DNA from: a virus
Taxonomy: Duplodnaviria > Heunggongvirae > Uroviricota > Caudoviricetes
Strand: one strand, 5' to 3'
Length of the DNA stretch: 8,835 bases
Virus record (IMG/VR): IMGVR_UViG_2663763227_000005
Shown here: piece after piece, positions 1 to 8,660 of the stretch
How positions within the stretch are numbered: position 1 is the first letter of the stretch
Layout: each line of letters begins with the position of its first letter
The notes under the pieces: model-generated
The model's database searches: none
Seen by the model: only the letters and a program-made list of their open reading frames with translations
Told to the model about the DNA's origin: nothing
Made by a program: the position numbers and the translations under genes

Positions 1-60
1 GTTACCCCCAAACGAATCGGAAAATCGATACTGGAAAAACTCTAACTCGGTGGCCAGTTT

Positions 61-675
61 TTGTTGACCACTTCAAACTTCCACGGAGTTGAGTTGGTGC
101 CCACCCGTGATATGCATGGTGTTTGGTTTACATCATCTAATATTGCATCTGCACTTAAATACGCAAATAGTCGTGCAGTAACAATGATTTATAACAAGTA
201 TAGCGATGAGTTTAGCGCCGGAATGACTCAGGTACTCGAAGTGAGTACCTCAGGAAATTATCGCAAAAAAGTGCGAGTTTTCTCACTACGCGGTGCCCAC
301 CTAATCGCGATGTTTGCTCGCACTCCGGTAGCCAAAGAGTTCCGCCGCTGGGTGCTGGATATTTTGGATCGGCAGGCAGAATGCTCACCGATTGCAAAAC
401 AGTTTACTGACGAAGAACTGGTTAATCTCTGCTACTTACAATTGTGGATGGAGAAGAGTCAACAAATGTGCAAACACATCTACCCAGGAATGAAGCAAAT
501 TGGTTCTGAGCTTTCAGGAAGGATTTACGATATTGCATATGAGACTCGCTACATGTCAGAAGAAACCAAGAAATCACTTCTTCGTGAAATGAAGAATCTT
601 GATACCAACAATTTTGTCGTAAAGAACGCTCAGCCAATGCTGGCAAAACTTCGCGGCGAGGAATGGATTCATTGA
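61..675 (+). CDS. Bro-N domain phage protein (antirepressor-like, DNA-binding). Start uncertain: TTG at 61 or 64, with an in-frame ATG only at 112.
   Basis: N-terminal pattern FHGVELVPTRDMHGVWFTSSNIASALKY ... VFSLRGAHLIAMFARTPVAKEFRRWVLDIL fits the Bro-N signature (F.F.G..IR...GEPWFVAKDVA..LGY ... LINESGLYSLI..S..P.AK.FK.WV) as I remember it. An in-frame stop at 43-45 bounds the ORF. A GGTGG SD-like sequence lies 7 nt upstream of TTG 61. Confidence 0.65.
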   Translation: MLTTSNFHGVELVPTRDMHGVWFTSSNIASALKYANSRAVTMIYNKYSDEFSAGMTQVLEVSTSGNYRKKVRVFSLRGAHLIAMFARTPVAKEFRRWVLDILDRQAECSPIAKQFTDEELVNLCYLQLWMEKSQQMCKHIYPGMKQIGSELSGRIYDIAYETRYMSEETKKSLLREMKNLDTNNFVVKNAQPMLAKLRGEEWIH

Positions 676-763
676 TTGGTGCGCCGGACTGCGCAAAAAG
701 AAAACCGCCAGTGTGCTGCTGGCGGCCTATGTCACACCCTTACTACCACATAAGGAATGCCTA

Positions 764-1492
764 ATGACTTTTAAGAATGTAGCAAACATCGGATCCGTTG
801 TCACGGATAAAACCATTGATAGCCAGTACCTGTTAGAGATGGTCAATCATGCTCGTAGACAGTGCGGGGAAAAAGAAGTCCGAAATAACGACTTTATTGC
901 ACGCATTAAGGATGAACTTGAAGGTGAGCACTACGAAATTTTCGTAGTTCAAAAATCAAACAAGACAACTTCTGAAAAAGTTGTTATGTCAATTAAGCAA
1001 GCCCTTCGAGTGGCTGCTCGTGAATCTAAAGCTGTTCGCCGCTCACTTGTAGACCAACTTGAAAGTATGCAAGAAGCGCACATTAAAAGCGGTAAATCGT
1101 CGAGTGGACTTGTTGAGTATCGCCAGGCGCGAACATTGAAAATGACGGTTGAAGCTGTTACCAATCTGTTCGATTTGATGCCAAATCTTGCGCCGGAAGC
1201 AAAGCAGACTGCGGCAGCAAGCATAATCAACCCGATAGTTGGTTTTAATGCAATACCTCTTCCGGCAATAGAAGAGCATTACTACTCAGCAGGGGAGGTT
1301 GCAGAGCAGCTTGGAGTAACGGCCAACAAGATTGGTCGCATTGCTAACGCAAACAACCTCAAAACTGAGCAGTACGGGAAGTTCTTCCTGGATAAATCTG
1401 CGCATTCCAGCAAACAGGTGGAAGCATTCCGCTACAATGCGGAAGGTGTTAAAGCTCTACAACACCTGATTCATGGGAGTAATGTTGCATAA
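764..1492 (+). CDS. Phage protein of unknown function, possibly regulatory. The C-terminal segment YYSAGEVAEQLGVTANKIGRIANANNLKTEQYGKFF looks like an HTH-type DNA-binding motif seen in antirepressor C-terminal domains. An alternative GTG start at 713 is less likely.
   Basis: Long ORF with AAGGA SD (752-756) 7 nt upstream of ATG 764. The GTG at 713 falls inside the loop of a hairpin (705-725). Domain assignment is by remembered pattern only. Confidence 0.6.
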   Translation: MTFKNVANIGSVVTDKTIDSQYLLEMVNHARRQCGEKEVRNNDFIARIKDELEGEHYEIFVVQKSNKTTSEKVVMSIKQALRVAARESKAVRRSLVDQLESMQEAHIKSGKSSSGLVEYRQARTLKMTVEAVTNLFDLMPNLAPEAKQTAAASIINPIVGFNAIPLPAIEEHYYSAGEVAEQLGVTANKIGRIANANNLKTEQYGKFFLDKSAHSSKQVEAFRYNAEGVKALQHLIHGSNVA

Positions 1493-1713
1493 TGGCAAAG
1501 AAAAAATATGGCATTATGCCGCCAAGAATCAAAGGAAGAGCCAGGGTAAAAGGCGATGCTGGGAGGTATCACATTCTTGGAGTTCTGTGGCATGAGAGAG
1601 CTTTAATTTTAAGTAGACCTCATGGGTACATTGAAAAGGTATCTATAGATAGAGTAGAGATTCTTCCCCTTACACCTGAAGAAGAAGAAACGTACGGACT
1701 TTTTGATAACTAA
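1492..1713 (+). CDS. Hypothetical small basic protein (73 aa), translationally coupled to the upstream ORF.
   Basis: ATG 1492-1494 overlaps the TAA stop (1490-1492) of the previous ORF (TAATG). It ends just before an intrinsic terminator. No recognisable family. Confidence 0.45.
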   Translation: MAKKKYGIMPPRIKGRARVKGDAGRYHILGVLWHERALILSRPHGYIEKVSIDRVEILPLTPEEEETYGLFDN

Positions 1714-1720
1714 CCAACTA

Positions 1721-1746
1721 AACCCGCTTAATCGCGGGTTTTTTAT
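1721..1746 (+). terminator. Rho-independent terminator closing the rightward ORF cluster; only weakly bidirectional.
   Basis: Stem AACCCGC (1721-1727), loop TTAATC, stem GCGGGTT (1734-1740), followed by a T-run through 1744. On the minus strand only about three U residues follow the hairpin. Confidence 0.7.
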
Positions 1747-1769
1747 AAGGAGTATTCATGATTTACCCA

Positions 1770-2306
1770 TCAAACAACCCACCAGTTTGCCTGATTGGAT
1801 ACCAGCCTTGCAGTTTTTATGGAATTAATTATGCCATGCTCAAGAGCCTTGTTAGCATCCAAAATGGTCGAGTCTGCTATCAGGGATGCCCACCTAATAT
1901 GGGTTCCGATGTCGATATTGAACGTCTCAACGAAGCGATCAAGATCGTTATCGAGGCATTTCCCGTACTCTCTCAATCTGGCATGGTCGGCGGCTGGGGA
2001 GGCAAAGCACCATAATAGAGGATGTAACAGGAATCTTGATAATGGGTTTGCGAAACGTTCTGAGCCAGCCAGGAAAACGATATTAGCTATGGATTCAACA
2101 TTGCTTATGTTGTGAGTTCTAACGGTAACAGGGAGTGACTTAAGAAAGTTATACGCAGTAAAGCCAGCGGCAGTTTCCCCTCCCTGACTTGATATATGGA
2201 TATTTAATTCAGTTGCGCCTTGAGATAATGCGGTGAGACAGTGGTTCTGAAGTTGCCCAACAGTGGCAGTGTTAACGGGGCATAAGAAATGAATTGTGTG
2301 CAGCAT
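1770..2306 (-). CDS. ClpP-fold (Clp/crotonase superfamily) serine protease, minimal core of 178 aa, in the sieA position of the immI region.
   Basis: Aligns by eye to the E. coli ClpP core: ISSQGGETAAG vs INSPGGVITAG; VESIANIVFLAG vs AASMGAFLLTAG (catalytic Ser aligned); RFLLHP vs RVMIHQP (catalytic His aligned); ANKALEHGIINSI vs APEAVEYGLVDSIL. The ATG overlaps the mnt stop (TAATG on the minus strand), with AAGGA 9 nt upstream. Confidence 0.8.
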   Translation of the reverse strand: MLHTIHFLCPVNTATVGQLQNHCLTALSQGATELNIHISSQGGETAAGFTAYNFLKSLPVTVRTHNISNVESIANIVFLAGSERFANPLSRFLLHPLLWCFASPAADHARLREYGKCLDNDLDRFVETFNIDIGTHIRWASLIADSTILDANKALEHGIINSIKTARLVSNQANWWVV

Positions 2307-2668: not shown

Positions 2669-2821
2669 ATGGAGAAAGAAATAAGTAAGATTTTGGTAAG
2701 GATGCCGCAGTCGTTAAAGGATGCTATAGGTAGCAGGGCAAAGGAAGAGTGCAGGTCGTTTAACTCAGAGGTTATCAAGCGCCTGATAGACAGCTTGAAG
2801 AGAGAGGGGGTAATGGTATGA
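2669..2821 (+). CDS. arc: Arc-like ribbon-helix-helix repressor (50 aa from ATG 2669). The track ORF starts at TTG 2633, but the ATG with a GGAGGG SD is preferred.
   Basis: ILVRMPQSLKDAI...CRSFNSEVIKRLIDSLKREG matches P22 Arc ...RWPREVLDLV...GRSVNSEIYQRVMESFKKEG in pattern. GGAGGG (2658-2663) lies 5 nt upstream of ATG 2669. Confidence 0.75.
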   Translation: MEKEISKILVRMPQSLKDAIGSRAKEECRSFNSEVIKRLIDSLKREGVMV

Positions 2822-3021
2822 GTAAAGAATGTTGTTTCTGCGGCATTAGCGAATCAGACGCTGATCAAACATACATTTACTCTAAAGAAACAGGTCGGAT
2901 GCTGTGTAGTGACTGCGTGTTGGACATCATAAGATACAAGCATCTTGGATGTTCTGCCAGCATTAGCAATATAGGTGAAGTATATGAAGGGAAAGATATA
3001 ACTGATAGATCAGAAAGTTGA
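2818..3021 (+). CDS. Small CxxC...CxxC zinc-ribbon protein (67 aa) inserted between arc and ant; function unknown.
   Basis: Cys5-x2-Cys8 and Cys30-x2-Cys33 spacing. The ATG overlaps the arc stop (ATGA at 2818-2821). No equivalent gene lies between arc and ant in P22 as I recall it. Confidence 0.5.
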   Translation: MSKECCFCGISESDADQTYIYSKETGRMLCSDCVLDIIRYKHLGCSASISNIGEVYEGKDITDRSES

Positions 3022-3083
3022 AGCCCCAACTGCGGGAACAGTCAGGGCTTCGGTATCAACAAATCGTCTTAGGAAATATTGAC
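3013..3083 (-). ncRNA. sar: Candidate sar-like antisense RNA (about 70 nt), complementary to the ant ribosome-binding site and start codon.
   Basis: Leftward promoter: -35 TTGATA (plus-strand 3113-3118), 17-bp spacer, extended -10 TGcTATACT (plus-strand 3090-3098). Predicted TSS is near 3083. A compound hairpin AAGCCC-ca-ACTG-cgggaa-CAGT-ca-GGGCTT (3021-3050) is followed on the minus strand by CAACUUUCUG. The predicted length matches the roughly 68-69 nt P22 sar RNA (from memory). Confidence 0.4.
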
Positions 3084-4013
3084 ATGAAAAGTATAGCAAC
3101 AGCAGTATCTACTATCAATGTGCCATTCCACGGCGCAGAGCTTTATGTTGTCAATCACAACGGCGAACCGTACACCCCAATGAAACCTATCGTTGAGGGA
3201 ATGGGCATGACTTGGCAGTCTCAACACCGCAAGTTGATGGAGAGATTTAAGACCTGCATCATCGAAATGATGATTCAGCTCCCCGGCGATACTCAGCGTC
3301 GTCTGGTTATCTGTCTTGCTTTACGCAAACTTGCAGGTTGGCTGCAAACCATCAGCCCTAACAAAGTCCGCCCTGAAATCCGCGACAAGGTAATCCAGTA
3401 TCAGGAAGAGTGTGACGATGTACTCTACGAGTACTGGACTAAAGGCCATGTAGTTAACCCACGCAAAGCTAAAAAAGCGTTGCCGGGTAAAATCACCACT
3501 GAACAGCAGGAAGCCATTAAACAACTCGTCATGAGTCGCGGTCAGTCTCTGCCAAAAGAAAAACAGGCGAAGGCAATGATTACCATGTGGTCGTCACTGA
3601 AATCCCATTTTGGATGTTCGTACAAAGAAATCAGTGAGGAGCAGTTTACAGAAGCACTGTCACTTGCAGCTCGAGTTCCACTTGAAGGTGAGTTCATTGG
3701 CAAACAAGAGAAGAAAACCAACGAGCTTTCTGCAAAAGAAGCAAACAGCCTTGTATGGTTATGGGATTATGCCAACCGCTCACAGGCATTATTCCGCGAA
3801 CTGTATCCGGCGCTAAAACAAATTCAATCGAACTATTCCGGCAGATGTCATGACTGCGGTTATGAGTTCTCCCGTATTATCGATATGGCGAGAGATGTTT
3901 TAATCAACCATACACGAGATATTGATATTAATGAGCCAGACGGACCAACGAATCTTTCCGCATGGATGAGACTTAAGAATAAAGAATTACCTCCTTCAGT
4001 ACATAACTACTGA
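3084..4013 (+). CDS. ant: Ant antirepressor (P22 Ant-type N-terminal domain), 310 aa from ATG 3084. The track ORF starts at TTG 3018, which would run through the hairpin.
   Basis: VPFHGAELYVVNHNGEPYTPMKPIVEGMGMTWQSQHRKLMERF resembles the P22 antirepressor N-terminal domain pattern. AGGAAA (3071-3076) lies 7 nt upstream of ATG 3084. The position after arc and before the tailspike is as in P22. Confidence 0.85.
   Translation: MKSIATAVSTINVPFHGAELYVVNHNGEPYTPMKPIVEGMGMTWQSQHRKLMERFKTCIIEMMIQLPGDTQRRLVICLALRKLAGWLQTISPNKVRPEIRDKVIQYQEECDDVLYEYWTKGHVVNPRKAKKALPGKITTEQQEAIKQLVMSRGQSLPKEKQAKAMITMWSSLKSHFGCSYKEISEEQFTEALSLAARVPLEGEFIGKQEKKTNELSAKEANSLVWLWDYANRSQALFRELYPALKQIQSNYSGRCHDCGYEFSRIIDMARDVLINHTRDIDINEPDGPTNLSAWMRLKNKELPPSVHNY
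3090..3118 (-). promoter_or_regulatory. Psar-like leftward sigma70 promoter inside the 5' end of ant.
   Basis: Minus-strand TTGATA - 17 bp - TGcTATACT, a near-consensus extended -10 promoter, read directly from the sequence. Confidence 0.45.
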
Positions 4014-4113: not shown

Positions 4114-6801
4114 ATGACAGATATTACAGCCAATGTGATCGTATCGATGCCTTCGCAACTCTTCACTATGGCTCGTTCTTTTAAAGCCGTAGCCAATGGC
4201 AAAATTTATATCGGTAAAATTGACACTGACCCGGTAAATCCTGAAAACCAGATTCAGGTTTATGTGGAGAACGAAGACGGCTCTCACGTTCCTGTTTCGC
4301 AACCAATAATCATTAACGCTGCTGGATATCCGGTATATAACGGGCAGATTGCCAAATTCGTTACCGTGCAAGGTCATTCTATGGCTGTTTATGATGCATA
4401 TGGTGCGCAGCAGTTCTATTTTCCTAATGTGCTGAAGTATGACCCTGATCAGTCATTGAAATATGTAGAAGGGGCATTGCTTGTTACTGACTTAGGTAAT
4501 GGGACGTTTAAGAATAGTAGAAAAGACGTTGCCATTGGGGATAATCTAACAGGAACCAATTTTATTAGAATAAACGGCGGCGTCTATAAATGCACTCCAG
4601 TTGCAACTGGAATTGTTACTGAGATCAAACATAGATACATTATCGCAGGCGGGGTTAAAAGCTACCTGTCTCATATTTCCAGGCATGTCAGTGGTACGCG
4701 TAGGCCGCTGAACTGGAAATTAGAATTCAGCATCATAGACGATGAGATTACCGCAGATCTTAAAGATCAGTATGGTTACACGACCATGGGATTTCAGGGG
4801 ATTTACATAGACAGCAATGATGGAATGGTATACATCGGCTGGCAGACGCTAGACCCCGCATCGGTATGGGTTACGGTGCATGACTGGGTAACAGGAGCAT
4901 TGGTAACACGTCTTCATTTTCCGAATAACGTTGGTGCACCAGAAGGCATCCACGTTTACCGAGTGGCAGGACAGCGTTACATCCTGCTGCCGTACAGCCC
5001 ATCTCGCACTATCAGAATTTACCCTATCGAAGATCCGCGTACGCTGGTTGATAAAACGCAGATTACAAACTTCACTGAATCAACACGCCTTGGAGTGCGA
5101 TATCAGTTTAGTGGCTTTGGTAATACCCTGATATACGAAAATGCGGATATGGGTTGGCCGAAAATTTTTGATGTTGAGACAGGTGTATCCAATATCTTTA
5201 ACACACTGGATATTAACAGCCTTATAGAAGGATCTTACAGTCCAATGGGGACTATTACGGTTGATGCAAATGTTGGAGGTCGCGGAGCCGGTAAACCAAA
5301 ACGGCAGGGTGTCGCTCTTGGTTCTCAACGGATATTTGCTGGTATTGGTGCATCTACCACGGCGGGATCTGGAAATACTTTCGCAGGGTTGCAGGGTTAT
5401 ATTGAGTACAGCCTTAATGGTTCAGAATTAGGTCAGTACCTGCTGTCACCTGCAGATTTCAAAACATACTGGGATAGTTATTCAGGGAAGAGTGTTTACT
5501 CCACTGAAAATGAGGGGGTGCAGTCTTGTGATATTTCTGGCTCTGAGGAATTGTATCTTCTACAGTCTATTCGCTATGACAATGGGGGCGGATCAAATTA
5601 TAGGACTTTAAACATCATTCGCGCTAACTGTCCATCTAATGAACCTGGAACAGTAGACATGACTCCGCTATCCAATGCCTCCTCACAGTTATTTAACCCT
5701 CGCGGAAGGGTGATTAACGCTGGCCGTCACCCTGTGAACCCGGCTGATGGTATTGCGCTATTTACATCGGCACAGGCTATTTGTGACTATTTGCGGAATA
5801 CAGATGCAGGTAGATATGTGACATATCTTGAACAGGATATGCCACTGTTTGAAGGTGGGCCATCTGCGCCAGGACAGATGACGCTGCCAGCATTCTGCCT
5901 ATTGCAGATCGACTTCATCAACGGCGATACCTGGGAAATTACAGTTAATGGAACTAACAGGGCTAATAATTATACAGGAAGGATTTCCAAAAACGGCGGG
6001 TACAACTCTTTTACTAAGGTGTCCTCCCGCAGCATGTCGATTCTCGGATCCCCTGGTCTGGTTGATGTATCAATTCGCTCACCTAACTCACTAAATCTTC
6101 CAGAATTTGCTGGAGACTGGTCTACTGGTGTAAGTATAGGAGCTGCAGGTGGGGTGACAAACTGGCAGCCAGAAGGAACAGGTAACGGAGCATTATGGGA
6201 GTCAGGATATGCAAAAAACCGTGTGTTGCAGATATTCATGTCCACAACATCAAAACTGTTCTTCCGCTACGCAGACGATGCTATTCGCGCAGGTAACACA
6301 GGCTGGGCTGAGGCATGGTCGTCGCTGAACACGACCGTCGATTCAAGTGGTTTCATCAAAAAAGCCTCTCCGGTTGTGAAGATTTTCTCAGACGGTAGTA
6401 GTGAAACAAATCGCGAATCAGATGGGGTAACCGTCACACGGCTGGCATTGGGTGAATATCTGATTGAGGGTTGCGTAGGTCTGAATGCAGATGCTTCATG
6501 GGGGGGGATTGATGGTGGATTTGAAATACCGCAGGACCGAAACAAGCAGCCGCTCATCTGGCTGGATTATGTTGTTAACCAAGATGGATCTGTGTTGGTG
6601 AAAACGTTTCACCGCACTCATGATAACTCGCCCGTTTTTGCACGTAACGACATCCCTGGTGTTTCGAACGGTGACCCGATCGACATTCCTGCTAATCAAT
6701 TCGTTTCTGTGCGAGTACAGATGCCTGAGGATTCTGCATGGAATAAGCTTAAGGAACAACTAAATAAGGCTGAATTGATAGAAGATGATGTTGTGGAATA
6801 G
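4114..6801 (+). CDS. Tailspike protein (895 aa). The N-terminal roughly 113 aa is a P22 gp9-type head-binding domain; the remaining roughly 780 aa is a divergent receptor-binding or depolymerase module of unknown specificity.
   Basis: [71 protein letters not shown]...[13 protein letters not shown]...NVLKYDPDQ is near-identical in pattern to the P22 gp9 N-terminus ([59 protein letters not shown]...VLKYDPDQ). Similarity is lost after YDPDQ. GGAG (4102-4105) lies 8 nt upstream of the ATG. Confidence 0.9.
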
Positions 6802-7487
6802 GTCTGTGATATTGGCATAGGTATAAGTGTCCGCTATATGGGTGGCATTACGCCACCTTGCCATCTAGCTAGTCCGCCCACCACTGCATCATTTCTCTGC
6901 GCTTAACGTAGCGGATGCCTCACTATCACACGGTGATGGTTCATTACTGCTTTGTAGAATGGATAGAGAACTGAGGATTAAAAGATATCCCAAAACCCCA
7001 AAATCTCATCTTTAGGATTTGCAGAAAGGGAGGCGTGAACAGATGCCTGCGCATGAAGACGGAACTAGTCCAGATGTGATATTTGTGGTGATCACATACA
7101 TCATCAACGATGCTCGTTATGGTGAGTTTGATGACTACCCGCTGAAGTGAAAATTGTTTTGTGTACCAAATTGCGTACCAAACTAAAATCACAAATCATG
7201 AAGCCCTTGTTCATGGCGGTTCTCAGGGGTGTTGCGCGTAATCGTGAAACAAAAAGGTAGATTGTTGCTTACCGTCATTCATCATTAGGTTAAATCCGTT
7301 GTTTCTGCTGTCTGCCAGAGTATCAAATATCACCGTGCTAATCAGCTTTAGCGCGACAATTTGGCAGCGAGTGGCAACAGATCATGTCAGATAAAAATGA
7401 GAGGGTAGTCACATTTTCTTGCACTTTATTCCAGCCAGTTCATAAGTATTTCCGTAAAAAGAACAGCTATTTGAAACTCCTGAGGGT

Positions 7488-8660
7488 TTGCTGTTGAAAC
7501 GCCGTCTTATTATTGCTGCTTCTTTGTTCGTTTTTAATTTATCGTCTGGTTTTGCGGCGGAAAACATTCCTTTTTCACCTCAACCTCCAGAGATTCATGC
7601 CGGGTCCTGGGTATTGATGGATTACACCACCGGTCAGATTCTCACCGCGGGTAATGAGCATCAACAGCGCAATCCCGCCAGCCTGACAAAGCTGATGACG
7701 GGCTATGTCGTGGATCGCGCTATCGATAGTCATCGCATTACGCCAGACGATATTGTCACCGTGGGGCGTGATGCGTGGGCGAAAGATAATCCGGTGTTTG
7801 TCGGTTCTTCACTGATGTTTTTGAAAGAGGGCGATCGCGTATCGGTACGTGATTTAAGCCGTGGTTTAATTGTGGATTCCGGAAATGACGCTTGTGTTGC
7901 ACTGGCTGACTATATTGCCGGTGGGCAACGGCAGTTTGTTGAAATGATGAACAACTATGCCGAGAAGCTGCATCTCAAGGATACGCATTTTGAAACAGTG
8001 CATGGTCTGGATGCACCTGGCCAGCATAGCTCGGCTTATGATTTAGCTGTGCTTTCTCGCGCTATCATCCACGGCGAGCCCGAGTTTTATCATATGTACA
8101 GTGAGAAAAGCCTCACCTGGAACGGTATCACCCAGCAAAACCGTAACGGGTTATTGTGGGATAAAACCATGAATGTTGACGGCCTGAAAACGGGTCATAC
8201 TTCTGGTGCCGGGTTTAATCTCATTGCTTCGGCTGTAGATGGGCAGCGTCGTCTCATTGCAGTGGTAATGGGGGCTGACAGCGCAAAAGGTCGTGAGGAA
8301 GAGGCAAGAAAATTACTGCGTTGGGGTCAACAAAACTTTACTACGGTGCAAATTTTGCACCGTGGGAAAAAGGTTGGTACGGAACGCATCTGGTATGGCG
8401 ATAAAGAAAATATCGCCCTGGGAACGGAACAAGAGTTCTGGATGGTGCTACCGAAAGCCGAAATTCCACATATCAAAGCCAAATATACCCTTGATGGTAA
8501 AGAACTCACCGCGCCAATTAGCGCCCATCAGCGGGTAGGGGAAATTGAACTTTACGACCGTGATAAACAGGTGGCGCACTGGCCGCTGGTTACCCTGGAA
8601 TCTGTCGGGGAAGGCAGCATGTTTTCCCGGCTGAGTGATTATTTCCACCATAAGGACTGA
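7488..8660 (+). CDS. dacD: D-alanyl-D-alanine carboxypeptidase DacD (PBP6b), a host gene. It has a non-ATG start: TTG at 7488, or TTG at 7494 with better SD spacing.
   Basis: The protein matches E. coli DacD essentially along its full length as I remember it (signal peptide LIIAASLFVFNLSSGFA, SxxK motif in PASLTKLMT, SGN, KTG). GAGGG (7482-7486) lies upstream. Confidence 0.9.
   Translation: MLLKRRLIIAASLFVFNLSSGFAAENIPFSPQPPEIHAGSWVLMDYTTGQILTAGNEHQQRNPASLTKLMTGYVVDRAIDSHRITPDDIVTVGRDAWAKDNPVFVGSSLMFLKEGDRVSVRDLSRGLIVDSGNDACVALADYIAGGQRQFVEMMNNYAEKLHLKDTHFETVHGLDAPGQHSSAYDLAVLSRAIIHGEPEFYHMYSEKSLTWNGITQQNRNGLLWDKTMNVDGLKTGHTSGAGFNLIASAVDGQRRLIAVVMGADSAKGREEEARKLLRWGQQNFTTVQILHRGKKVGTERIWYGDKENIALGTEQEFWMVLPKAEIPHIKAKYTLDGKELTAPISAHQRVGEIELYDRDKQVAHWPLVTLESVGEGSMFSRLSDYFHHKD

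Follow-up and report, generated by a model that had tools for sequence, protein, structure and literature searches.

Antirepressors decide when a prophage awakens, and neighbouring prophages can be induced by them too. To our knowledge, the mnt/arc/sar/ant arrangement is the only well-studied layout of such genes in P22-like phages. Small operons with accessory genes and a dedicated repressor are also found among LexA- or repressor-controlled antirepressor operons (those of the Gifsy phages, for example), which we set beside the present locus by description, and in antA-antB-antC of N15; we know of no described antisense control in either the Gifsy or the N15 operons. The variable antirepressor cargo of P22-like phages has been termed the 'ant moron' by Villafane et al.; it is known to change quickly, and both degraded ant genes and, in one case, an IS3 insertion are reported (PMC2629481). 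Here we analyse 8,835 nucleotides of a virus of the Caudoviricetes (IMG/VR record IMGVR_UViG_2663763227_000005), an entire draft contig whose left end breaks inside the insertion sequence (IS) IS911, further upstream sequence being outside view; this whole stretch is called the window. We consider it likely that positions 61-1746 of the window are the distal remnant of a second immI-type antirepressor operon, an ant moron, in a P22-like prophage. Between the first two genes of this cluster lie a conserved promoter and terminator on the minus strand, which an earlier note made from the letters of this sequence had overlooked.

The cluster has the following parts (ORF, open reading frame; aa, amino acids):

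1 to 75, + strand: right end of IS911 (IS3 family), with 75/75 identity to the IS911 of phages Sf6 and SfII
61 to 675, + strand: ORF1 as listed, 204 aa with a TTG start (ORF list and raw sequence)
76 to 675, + strand: ant1, an antirepressor gene cut at its 5' end, native codons 10-208 plus stop
about 115 to 363, + strand: Bro-N domain of ant1 (Pfam)
about 397 to 600, + strand: P22AR_C domain of ant1 (Pfam)
764 to 1492, + strand: ORF2 (orf242), 242 aa, with ATG at 764-766 and an AAGGA Shine-Dalgarno sequence at 752-756
about aa 14-106 of ORF2, + strand: N-domain, homologous to the P1/P7 Ant1/Ant2 core
about aa 116-237 of ORF2, + strand: C-domain, ending (in the model) in a MerR/excisionase-like winged helix-turn-helix
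1492 to 1713, + strand: ORF3 (orf73), 73 aa
1720 to 1744, + strand: intrinsic terminator closing the operon, AAACCCGC-UUAAUC-GCGGGUUU plus UUU

Three rightward ORFs and a terminator facing the mnt operon had already been described in the earlier note, and the ORFs, the hairpin and its U run are all found; the second ORF exists as claimed, with 242 rather than 243 aa. The intact relatives examined are Escherichia coli 55989, phage JEP4 (Lederbergvirus), contig FZGF01000124 and two more E. coli strains. In the intact order, the ejection genes are followed by minus-strand sieA and/or a repressor gene, then by arc, ant1, orf242 and orf73, and finally by minus-strand mnt and the tailspike gene. This is the immI position, from the gene 16 homologue to the tailspike with Arc/Mnt-family regulators, and it is because of the gene order between ejection genes and tailspike that the cluster is read as an immI antirepressor operon. 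In the window only the right side of this position can be recognised (tailspike at 4114), the contig breaking off within IS911 on the left. The block had earlier been put ahead of sieA, where the ejection genes finish; in the relatives it is found instead at the ant position, after sieA or the repressor gene and arc. Its earlier description as variable accessory cargo of prophages holds, the cargo being of the ant moron type (PMC2629481).

Directly downstream in the window lies a second, complete canonical immI, in which minus-strand ClpP-like and mnt genes precede arc, sar, ant and the tailspike gene. An intact tandem is present in E. coli 20AR0300, where genes for a LexA-family repressor, a P22AR_C protein and an ORF6N protein are followed by ClpP-like, mnt, arc, ant and tailspike genes. 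The ORF2-ORF3 segment occurs in 52 of 5426 complete E. coli genomes (about 1%). The divergent gene by the first antirepressor operon in JEP4 (2775-3344) and in E. coli 20AR0300 (1274-2134) is of the C2/LexA family (S24 peptidase type) and not Mnt, which hints that some versions of the operon are SOS-inducible.

The left boundary of the remnant is sharp. The inverted repeat of IS911 closes with ...GTTGACCACTTCA at base 75, and matches to the cluster in E. coli genomes all begin at base 76. Window positions 2-67 encode the final 21 residues of OrfB, with no difference from the IS911 of Sf6, and include the TGA stop at 65-67; from the Sf6 annotation, the transposase genes are co-directional with ORF1. 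The TTG at 61 from which ORF1 had previously been started is therefore inside IS911, and its first five codons (TTG TTG ACC ACT TCA) are IS sequence. Read in this way, the 204-aa 'gene' at 61-675 is an IS-fusion artefact. The intact E. coli 55989 allele has 208 aa and starts, with ATGAATATTGTAGCAAAATCAGATTAC, 27 nt upstream of the base equivalent to 76. The insertion point thus follows codon 9 of the 208-aa ant1, and native codons 1-9, the ribosome site, arc and the promoter are absent from the window. What remains of the ant1 protein is 99.5% identical to the intact allele and has no internal stops. The insertion looks recent, because ant1, orf242 and orf73 show no other damage to their reading frames and retain about 99% identity to intact alleles. 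Had the insertion been a simple one, ...ATGAATATTGTAGCAAAATCAGATTACAAC and next to it the left end of IS911 would be expected about 1.25 kb upstream, the 3-bp target AAC then being present at both ends. The IS911/phage junction sequence has no exact match in viral or metagenome collections, and no complete E. coli genome spans it. A promoter scan found no promoter-like site on the + strand in window 1-763. A hybrid outward promoter from the IS911 end was considered and rejected: there is a TTGACC at 64-69, but no usable -10 at 86-92.

ORF1 had been taken for a Bro-N antirepressor-like protein, and the domain matches agree. Its residues 19-101 match positions 10-93 of the 96 in Pfam Bro-N (PF02498) with 41.7 bits (cut-off 25.6; 1.8e-10), as the intact ant1 of E. 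coli 55989 also does, and Pfam P22_AR_C (PF10548) is matched with 53.5 bits (cut-off 22.4; 2.6e-14). In Pfam, P22_AR_N (PF10547) is not matched, Bro-N occupying its place. The match to PHROG 245 'anti-repressor Ant' has E = 9.5e-51, and several other PHROG families of that name are matched too. The gene is indeed additional to a canonical Ant, found at 3084-4013.

ORF2, which had been left unassigned, can now be assigned by PHROG family, by identity to P7 Ant1/Ant2 and by structural matches. It matches PHROG 1726 'anti-repressor' at 2.4e-100; sequence searches of Pfam, NCBIfam and PDB gave no match of any weight. By BLASTP, residues 14-106 show 64% identity over 96 aa to residues 112-207 of P7 Ant1 (E = 2e-37), a region also present in Ant2; with the ORF2 family profile the match to P7 Ant (E = 1.6e-43) reaches Ant1 residue 254. 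According to their annotation, P7 Ant1 and Ant2 complex with the C1 repressor. The AlphaFold2 model of ORF2 has two domains (predicted local distance difference test score, pLDDT, 74), and its closest Foldseek matches among viral models are antirepressor, KilAC and KilA proteins. The C-domain resembles the DNA-binding domains of MerR, Par, RacA and excisionase in structure, and HTH_17 is weakly matched in 6 of 48 homologues. KilAC (Pfam ANT, PF03374), matched by P7 Ant1 at 4e-31, is not matched by ORF2 or by 47 homologues.

The ORF2 family comprises more than 2,100 clusters across Enterobacterales. When one genome per species was scanned, homologues of full length were almost always found to lie directly after a Bro-N/P22AR_C or Ant-like gene, and in most such loci an Arc/Mnt-like gene is just upstream of the ant gene. 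The pair is found in Serratia, Buttiauxella, Pantoea, Citrobacter, Proteus, Erwinia, Kluyvera and other genera, followed variously by mnt, lipoprotein genes or tail genes. To the earlier question of whether such clusters travel together, the answer is that the ant gene and ORF2 do so as a pair, and that ORF3 joins them only in E. coli/Salmonella versions. The same scan finds the N-part (1-105) and the C-part (106-242) separately in other proteins. ORF2 is under purifying selection, the ratio of nonsynonymous to synonymous substitution rates (dN/dS) being 0.17-0.24 at dS about 0.4.

Annotation labels on ORF2 homologues are KilA or Roi, and some homologues in Stx-type phages lie in the early region, outside any ant operon. 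The Roi label, carried by a homologue in phage PhiR12_3, was examined and set aside: the ORF2 profile has no significant match among all HK022 ORFs. The 241-aa HK022 ORF between P and Q, which we take from its position to be roi (the record carries no such annotation), gives E = 6 and has a pRha + KilAC architecture. The comparisons made here lend no support to calling these genes 'Rha', 'KilA' or 'Roi'. A reading of ORF2 as part of a defence system was likewise dropped, PADLOC giving only weak matches (E >= 0.0036) on its helix-turn-helix region.

Three elements are predicted across the spacer between ant1 and ORF2 and the 5' end of ORF2:

695 to 769, - strand: predicted cis-antisense RNA of ~75 nt, with promoter and terminator, covering the ORF2 start codon and Shine-Dalgarno sequence
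776 to 804, - strand: predicted sigma-70 promoter (promoter scan), inside ORF2 codons 5-14
692 to 728, - strand: intrinsic terminator (terminator scan and fold), a 10-bp stem at 728-702 and then UCUUUUU

We lean, if only slightly, towards the view that this spacer encodes an uncatalogued family of sar-like cis-antisense RNAs that gate a second antirepressor-type gene in many enterobacterial prophages. The predicted promoter consists of a -35 GTGACA at 804-799, a 17-nt spacer and an extended -10 TGcTACATT at 784-776, with +1 at the A at 769. The homologous region was gathered from 114 loci and reduced to 65 distinct sequences. Among the distinct ORF2-type sequences from ant operons, a set selected as ORF2 homologues with GTGACA near codon 13 and with the -10 not a criterion, 36/36 keep GTGACA, the 17-nt spacing, TGnTAnAnT and the hairpin with its U run. 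An A 7 nt past the -10 is also invariant in all 36, and the spacer and RNA body are variable. Third positions of ORF2 are invariant in only 12 of 240 aligned codons; codons 5, 6, 7, 12 and 13, which lie under the hexamers, are among the 12, and so is codon 2, at the predicted +1. Despite these invariant third positions the amino acid is variable at codons 5, 6, 7 and 12, and neighbouring codons vary freely.

In the terminator stem, 97.2% of cells across the 32 distinct homologues can pair, with compensatory changes in 5 of the 10 pairs, and positions slid as controls are at most 57% paired. None of 500 shuffles reaches these values, a count that is not a probability, since the aligned sequences are related by descent. 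RNAalifold recovers the same helix. Eight representative sequences fold into a 5' hairpin plus the terminator hairpin (z from -2.8 to -5.4), and in 26 of 33 sequences the stretch that immediately precedes the terminator is the pairing partner of the 5' end. A covariance model of the homologous sequences scores 84.1 bits at window 693-769 (-). At loci outside its training set, the model also finds the element before second genes with unrelated N-domains, the ORF6N gene of 20AR0300 being an example, which suggests that the antisense cassette may be mobile as a regulatory module. It finds no match at the early-region homologue of Stx-type phages, at P1/P7 ant or at P22-type sar, and no Rfam family matches the element, even at E <= 1. 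The conservation of promoter and terminator extends over many genera of enterobacteria.

The element has the architecture of sar (RF00262) as far as it can be predicted, and does not reach the Rfam sar gathering score. As in sar, the predicted RNA is about 70 nt long with two hairpins, the second being the terminator, and is complementary to the ribosome site of its target; its predicted promoter is placed within the opening codons of that gene, the -10 overlapping a (V/I)-A codon pair (GTA/ATA GCA). The canonical sar of the window stands before the ant of the second module, a place equivalent to that of the new element before ORF2. Unlike sar, the predicted RNA has as its target the gene after ant and not ant itself, and it covers the AUG, whereas the window's sar copy stops 2 nt before the ant ATG. 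In intact relatives a similar-looking, sar-like cassette occupies the spacer between arc and ant1 (E. coli 55989; L001 5905-5990, -). It shows TGCTACAAT across ant1 codons 3-5, the motif TGACATAG, and a hairpin (GGCCCGG...CCGGGC) with a T run. Against Rfam this spacer gives only a chance-level match to symR (E = 0.73), and in the window the corresponding part falls beyond IS911.

Compared with the P22 immI and ant morons as a whole, the cluster shares the site between ejection genes and tailspike (in the relatives), flanking repressor genes of the Arc/Mnt family, a P22AR_C domain on the antirepressor, a proneness to rearrangement and IS insertion (PMC2629481), and, as predicted, a short antisense RNA running from inside the 5' end of the regulated gene to a terminator in the upstream spacer. 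It differs in that Bro-N replaces P22_AR_N, orf242 and orf73 come after ant1, the predicted antisense RNA is aimed at the second gene and has no Rfam sar match, and the module in the window is a second, cut copy beside a canonical one. With P1/P7 Ant1/Ant2, ORF2 shares the homologous core and, if the prediction holds, translation under antisense RNA control. However, P7 Ant ends in KilAC and ORF2 in a MerR-like winged helix, and ORF2 shows no counterpart of the nested second start of Ant1/Ant2. In addition, the c4 RNA of P1 (immI: c4, icd, ant) is processed from the transcript of its target, while the RNA predicted here would come from the opposite strand.

The intact form, as the relatives show, consists of a divergent repressor gene followed by promoter, arc, ant1 (Bro-N + P22AR_C, 208 aa), orf242, orf73 and terminator. 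In the mechanism we propose, the ant1 and ORF2 products would be two different antirepressor-type proteins, each inactivating a CI/C2-type repressor by binding, be it the phage's own or that of a co-resident prophage. The ~75-nt antisense RNA would pair with the ORF2 Shine-Dalgarno and AUG and so gate translation, as P22 sar does for ant, and ORF3 would be made by translational coupling to ORF2. In the window, IS911 after ant1 codon 9 separates ant1, orf242 and orf73 from promoter, arc and the ant1 ribosome site; the operon there probably has no expression, or none beyond what read-through from the IS911 transposase genes, which run in its direction, would provide, and the predicted antisense RNA gene is still intact. 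If the cassette between arc and ant1 in intact relatives is a further paralogue, as it appears to be, intact operons would be two-stage switches, each antirepressor with its own antisense brake. The comparisons point to an alternative layout, widespread among prophages, of two different antirepressor-type genes in series, the second apparently under its own antisense RNA; the prophage in the window has a cut copy of it stacked onto a canonical immI. Should the RNA be real, one more family would be added to the short list of phage antisense regulators. The cluster itself is an ordinary rearranged ant-moron cassette, and its feature of moderate interest is the conserved, predicted sar-like RNA before a gene related to P1/P7 Ant.

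Several observations weigh against this interpretation in one part or another. As the left side of the IS lies beyond the contig, interruption of the operon and deletion of its upstream part are not distinguishable. It is from family membership only that antirepressor activity is presumed for ORF1; ORF2 likewise would be a two-domain protein of the antirepressor class by family membership, its activity presumed from that class, and with no KilAC and a winged helix of DNA-binding type it could regulate by binding DNA instead of binding a repressor. The sequences of the promoter test were themselves chosen by their -35 hexamer, and one divergent full-length homologue (L146) does not have the module. 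The link to sar is one of architecture and not of demonstrated homology, the models having no cross-matches either way, and the spacer hairpin forms on both strands, so that part of its conservation could serve the mRNA. This last point can be extended to a reading with no RNA gene at all, which we regard as quite improbable: the hairpin would act in the sense mRNA, either by blocking access to the ORF2 ribosome site or through an effect on the stability or processing of the ant1 transcript, or it would stop leftward transcription from the downstream minus-strand genes, the hexamers being kept for coding or translation initiation. The complement of each antisense hairpin does also form in the mRNA, where the AUG region and a segment ahead of the Shine-Dalgarno form the two arms of the 5' hairpin, and the spacer hairpin folds on the + strand at -14.8 kcal/mol. 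This fold is, however, not unusual for its composition (z = -1.2), and the conserved run is A-rich on the + strand and upstream of the stem, so that in 32/32 sequences only the minus strand has a U-tract there. Moreover, the invariant third positions fall exactly on a -35, a 17-nt interval and a TGn-10 while the encoded residues vary, the A 7 nt past the -10 is invariant as well, and the terminator at 1720-1744 already faces the minus-strand genes.

Rather unlikely, in our judgement, is that ORF2, with or without ORF3, is no antirepressor but a DNA-binding regulator or a host-directed KilA/Rha/Roi-like protein with shuffled domains, for example a transcription factor of the late or tailspike region, or a growth inhibitor. 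The likeness of the C-domain to MerR, Par, RacA and excisionase, the weak HTH_17 matches in 6 of 48 homologues, the evident shuffling of domains, the KilA and Roi annotations, and the early-region homologues of Stx-type phages all point in that direction. What argues for an antirepressor is the 64% identity to a core common to P7 Ant1 and Ant2, proteins annotated as complexing with C1, the constant place of ORF2 homologues right after an ant gene under Arc/Mnt control, and the predicted sar-like control cassette of ORF2, like that of P22 ant; HK022 Roi, for its part, has no similarity to ORF2 and a different architecture (pRha + KilAC). It is an even question, in contrast, whether all three genes have been dead cargo in the source strain since IS911 arrived, that is, unexpressed pseudogene remnants. 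Promoter, arc and the ant1 start have been separated from them, window 1-763 offers no + strand promoter-like site, and ant morons are in flux, as the degraded ant genes and the IS3 case illustrate (PMC2629481). On the other hand, the genes have neither stops nor frameshifts and are about 99% identical to intact alleles, and the IS911 transposase genes read toward ORF1, so that read-through is possible. This alternative concerns the source strain only and is compatible with the identity of the module as the remnant of an immI-type operon.

The ORF2/ORF3 overlap, TAATG at 1490-1494, is exact in the raw sequence, and the coupling of the two genes proposed earlier stands on it; ORF3 probably works with ORF2. 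The ORF3 model is a small five-strand SH3/KOW/Tudor-like barrel with an acidic C-terminal helix, for which structural matches are generic only. Its close clusters number eight, all from E. coli or Salmonella. Exhaustive and profile searches show its distant relatives to be a thin family with a conserved N-terminal motif and no Pfam domain, in uninformative gene neighbourhoods. At the ORF3 start there is an A-rich run, AAAGAAAAAATATGG (window 1497-1510), and three database variants (P0123, P0124, P0126) have N-termini in another frame across it, which suggests slippage-prone indels or sequencing errors at the run.

The hairpin that ends the operon, at 1720-1741 with a U run to 1744, folds on the + strand at -12.4 kcal/mol (z = -3.3), and its complement on the - strand folds at -13.8 kcal/mol (z about -3.3). 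The terminator faces the convergent minus-strand ClpP-like/mnt transcript, whose end is at 1770, and 1720-1744 is the breakpoint of similarity to other prophages for both adjoining modules. Just beyond it, a strong Shine-Dalgarno AAGGAG and an ATG at 1758 open an 85-aa ORF (window 1744-2015, +) antisense to the ClpP-like gene, which is probably spurious despite its unusually good ribosome site.

The remaining annotated features of the window are:

1770 to 2306, - strand: ClpP-like gene, 178 aa (Pfam CLP_protease, 2.2e-11)
2306 to 2554, - strand: mnt
3016 to 3082, - strand: canonical sar (RF00262), Rfam 73.4 bits, E = 3e-14, just upstream of the ant ATG at 3084
3084 to 4013, + strand: canonical ant, with P22_AR_N (1.3e-45) and P22_AR_C domains
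4114 to 6801, + strand: tailspike gene, 895 aa, with the P22 head-binding domain at residues 1-113 and Phage_tail_C_2 at 739-872

The ClpP-like gene is coupled to mnt through a TAATG overlap at 2304-2308, and its expression in the lysogen would therefore come from the maintenance-repressor operon. A ClpP-like gene is absent from this place in P22. The ClpP-mnt-arc-ant segment is found at a coverage of at least 80% in 21 complete E. coli genomes. The likely promoter of the canonical sar is TTGATA-18-TATACT at 3117-3088. Between arc and ant there is also a 67-aa cysteine-rich ORF (window 2818-3021, +) with a zinc-ribbon-like CCFCG...CSDC; it overlaps the arc stop codon, extends into the sar/ant start region and has no match in Pfam, NCBIfam or PADLOC. 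In E. coli 20AR0300 this ORF is 97% conserved yet unannotated. The tailspike, at 895 aa, is much longer than the 627-716 aa of the relatives examined, and because of this its receptor-binding part appears to have been swapped. The prophage/chromosome boundary lies in window 6801-7488, dacD (7488/7494-8660) being within 690 bp of the tailspike gene. Other E. coli strains have P22-like prophages at the same dacD site, and some are annotated with a HumD/S24 peptidase remnant there.

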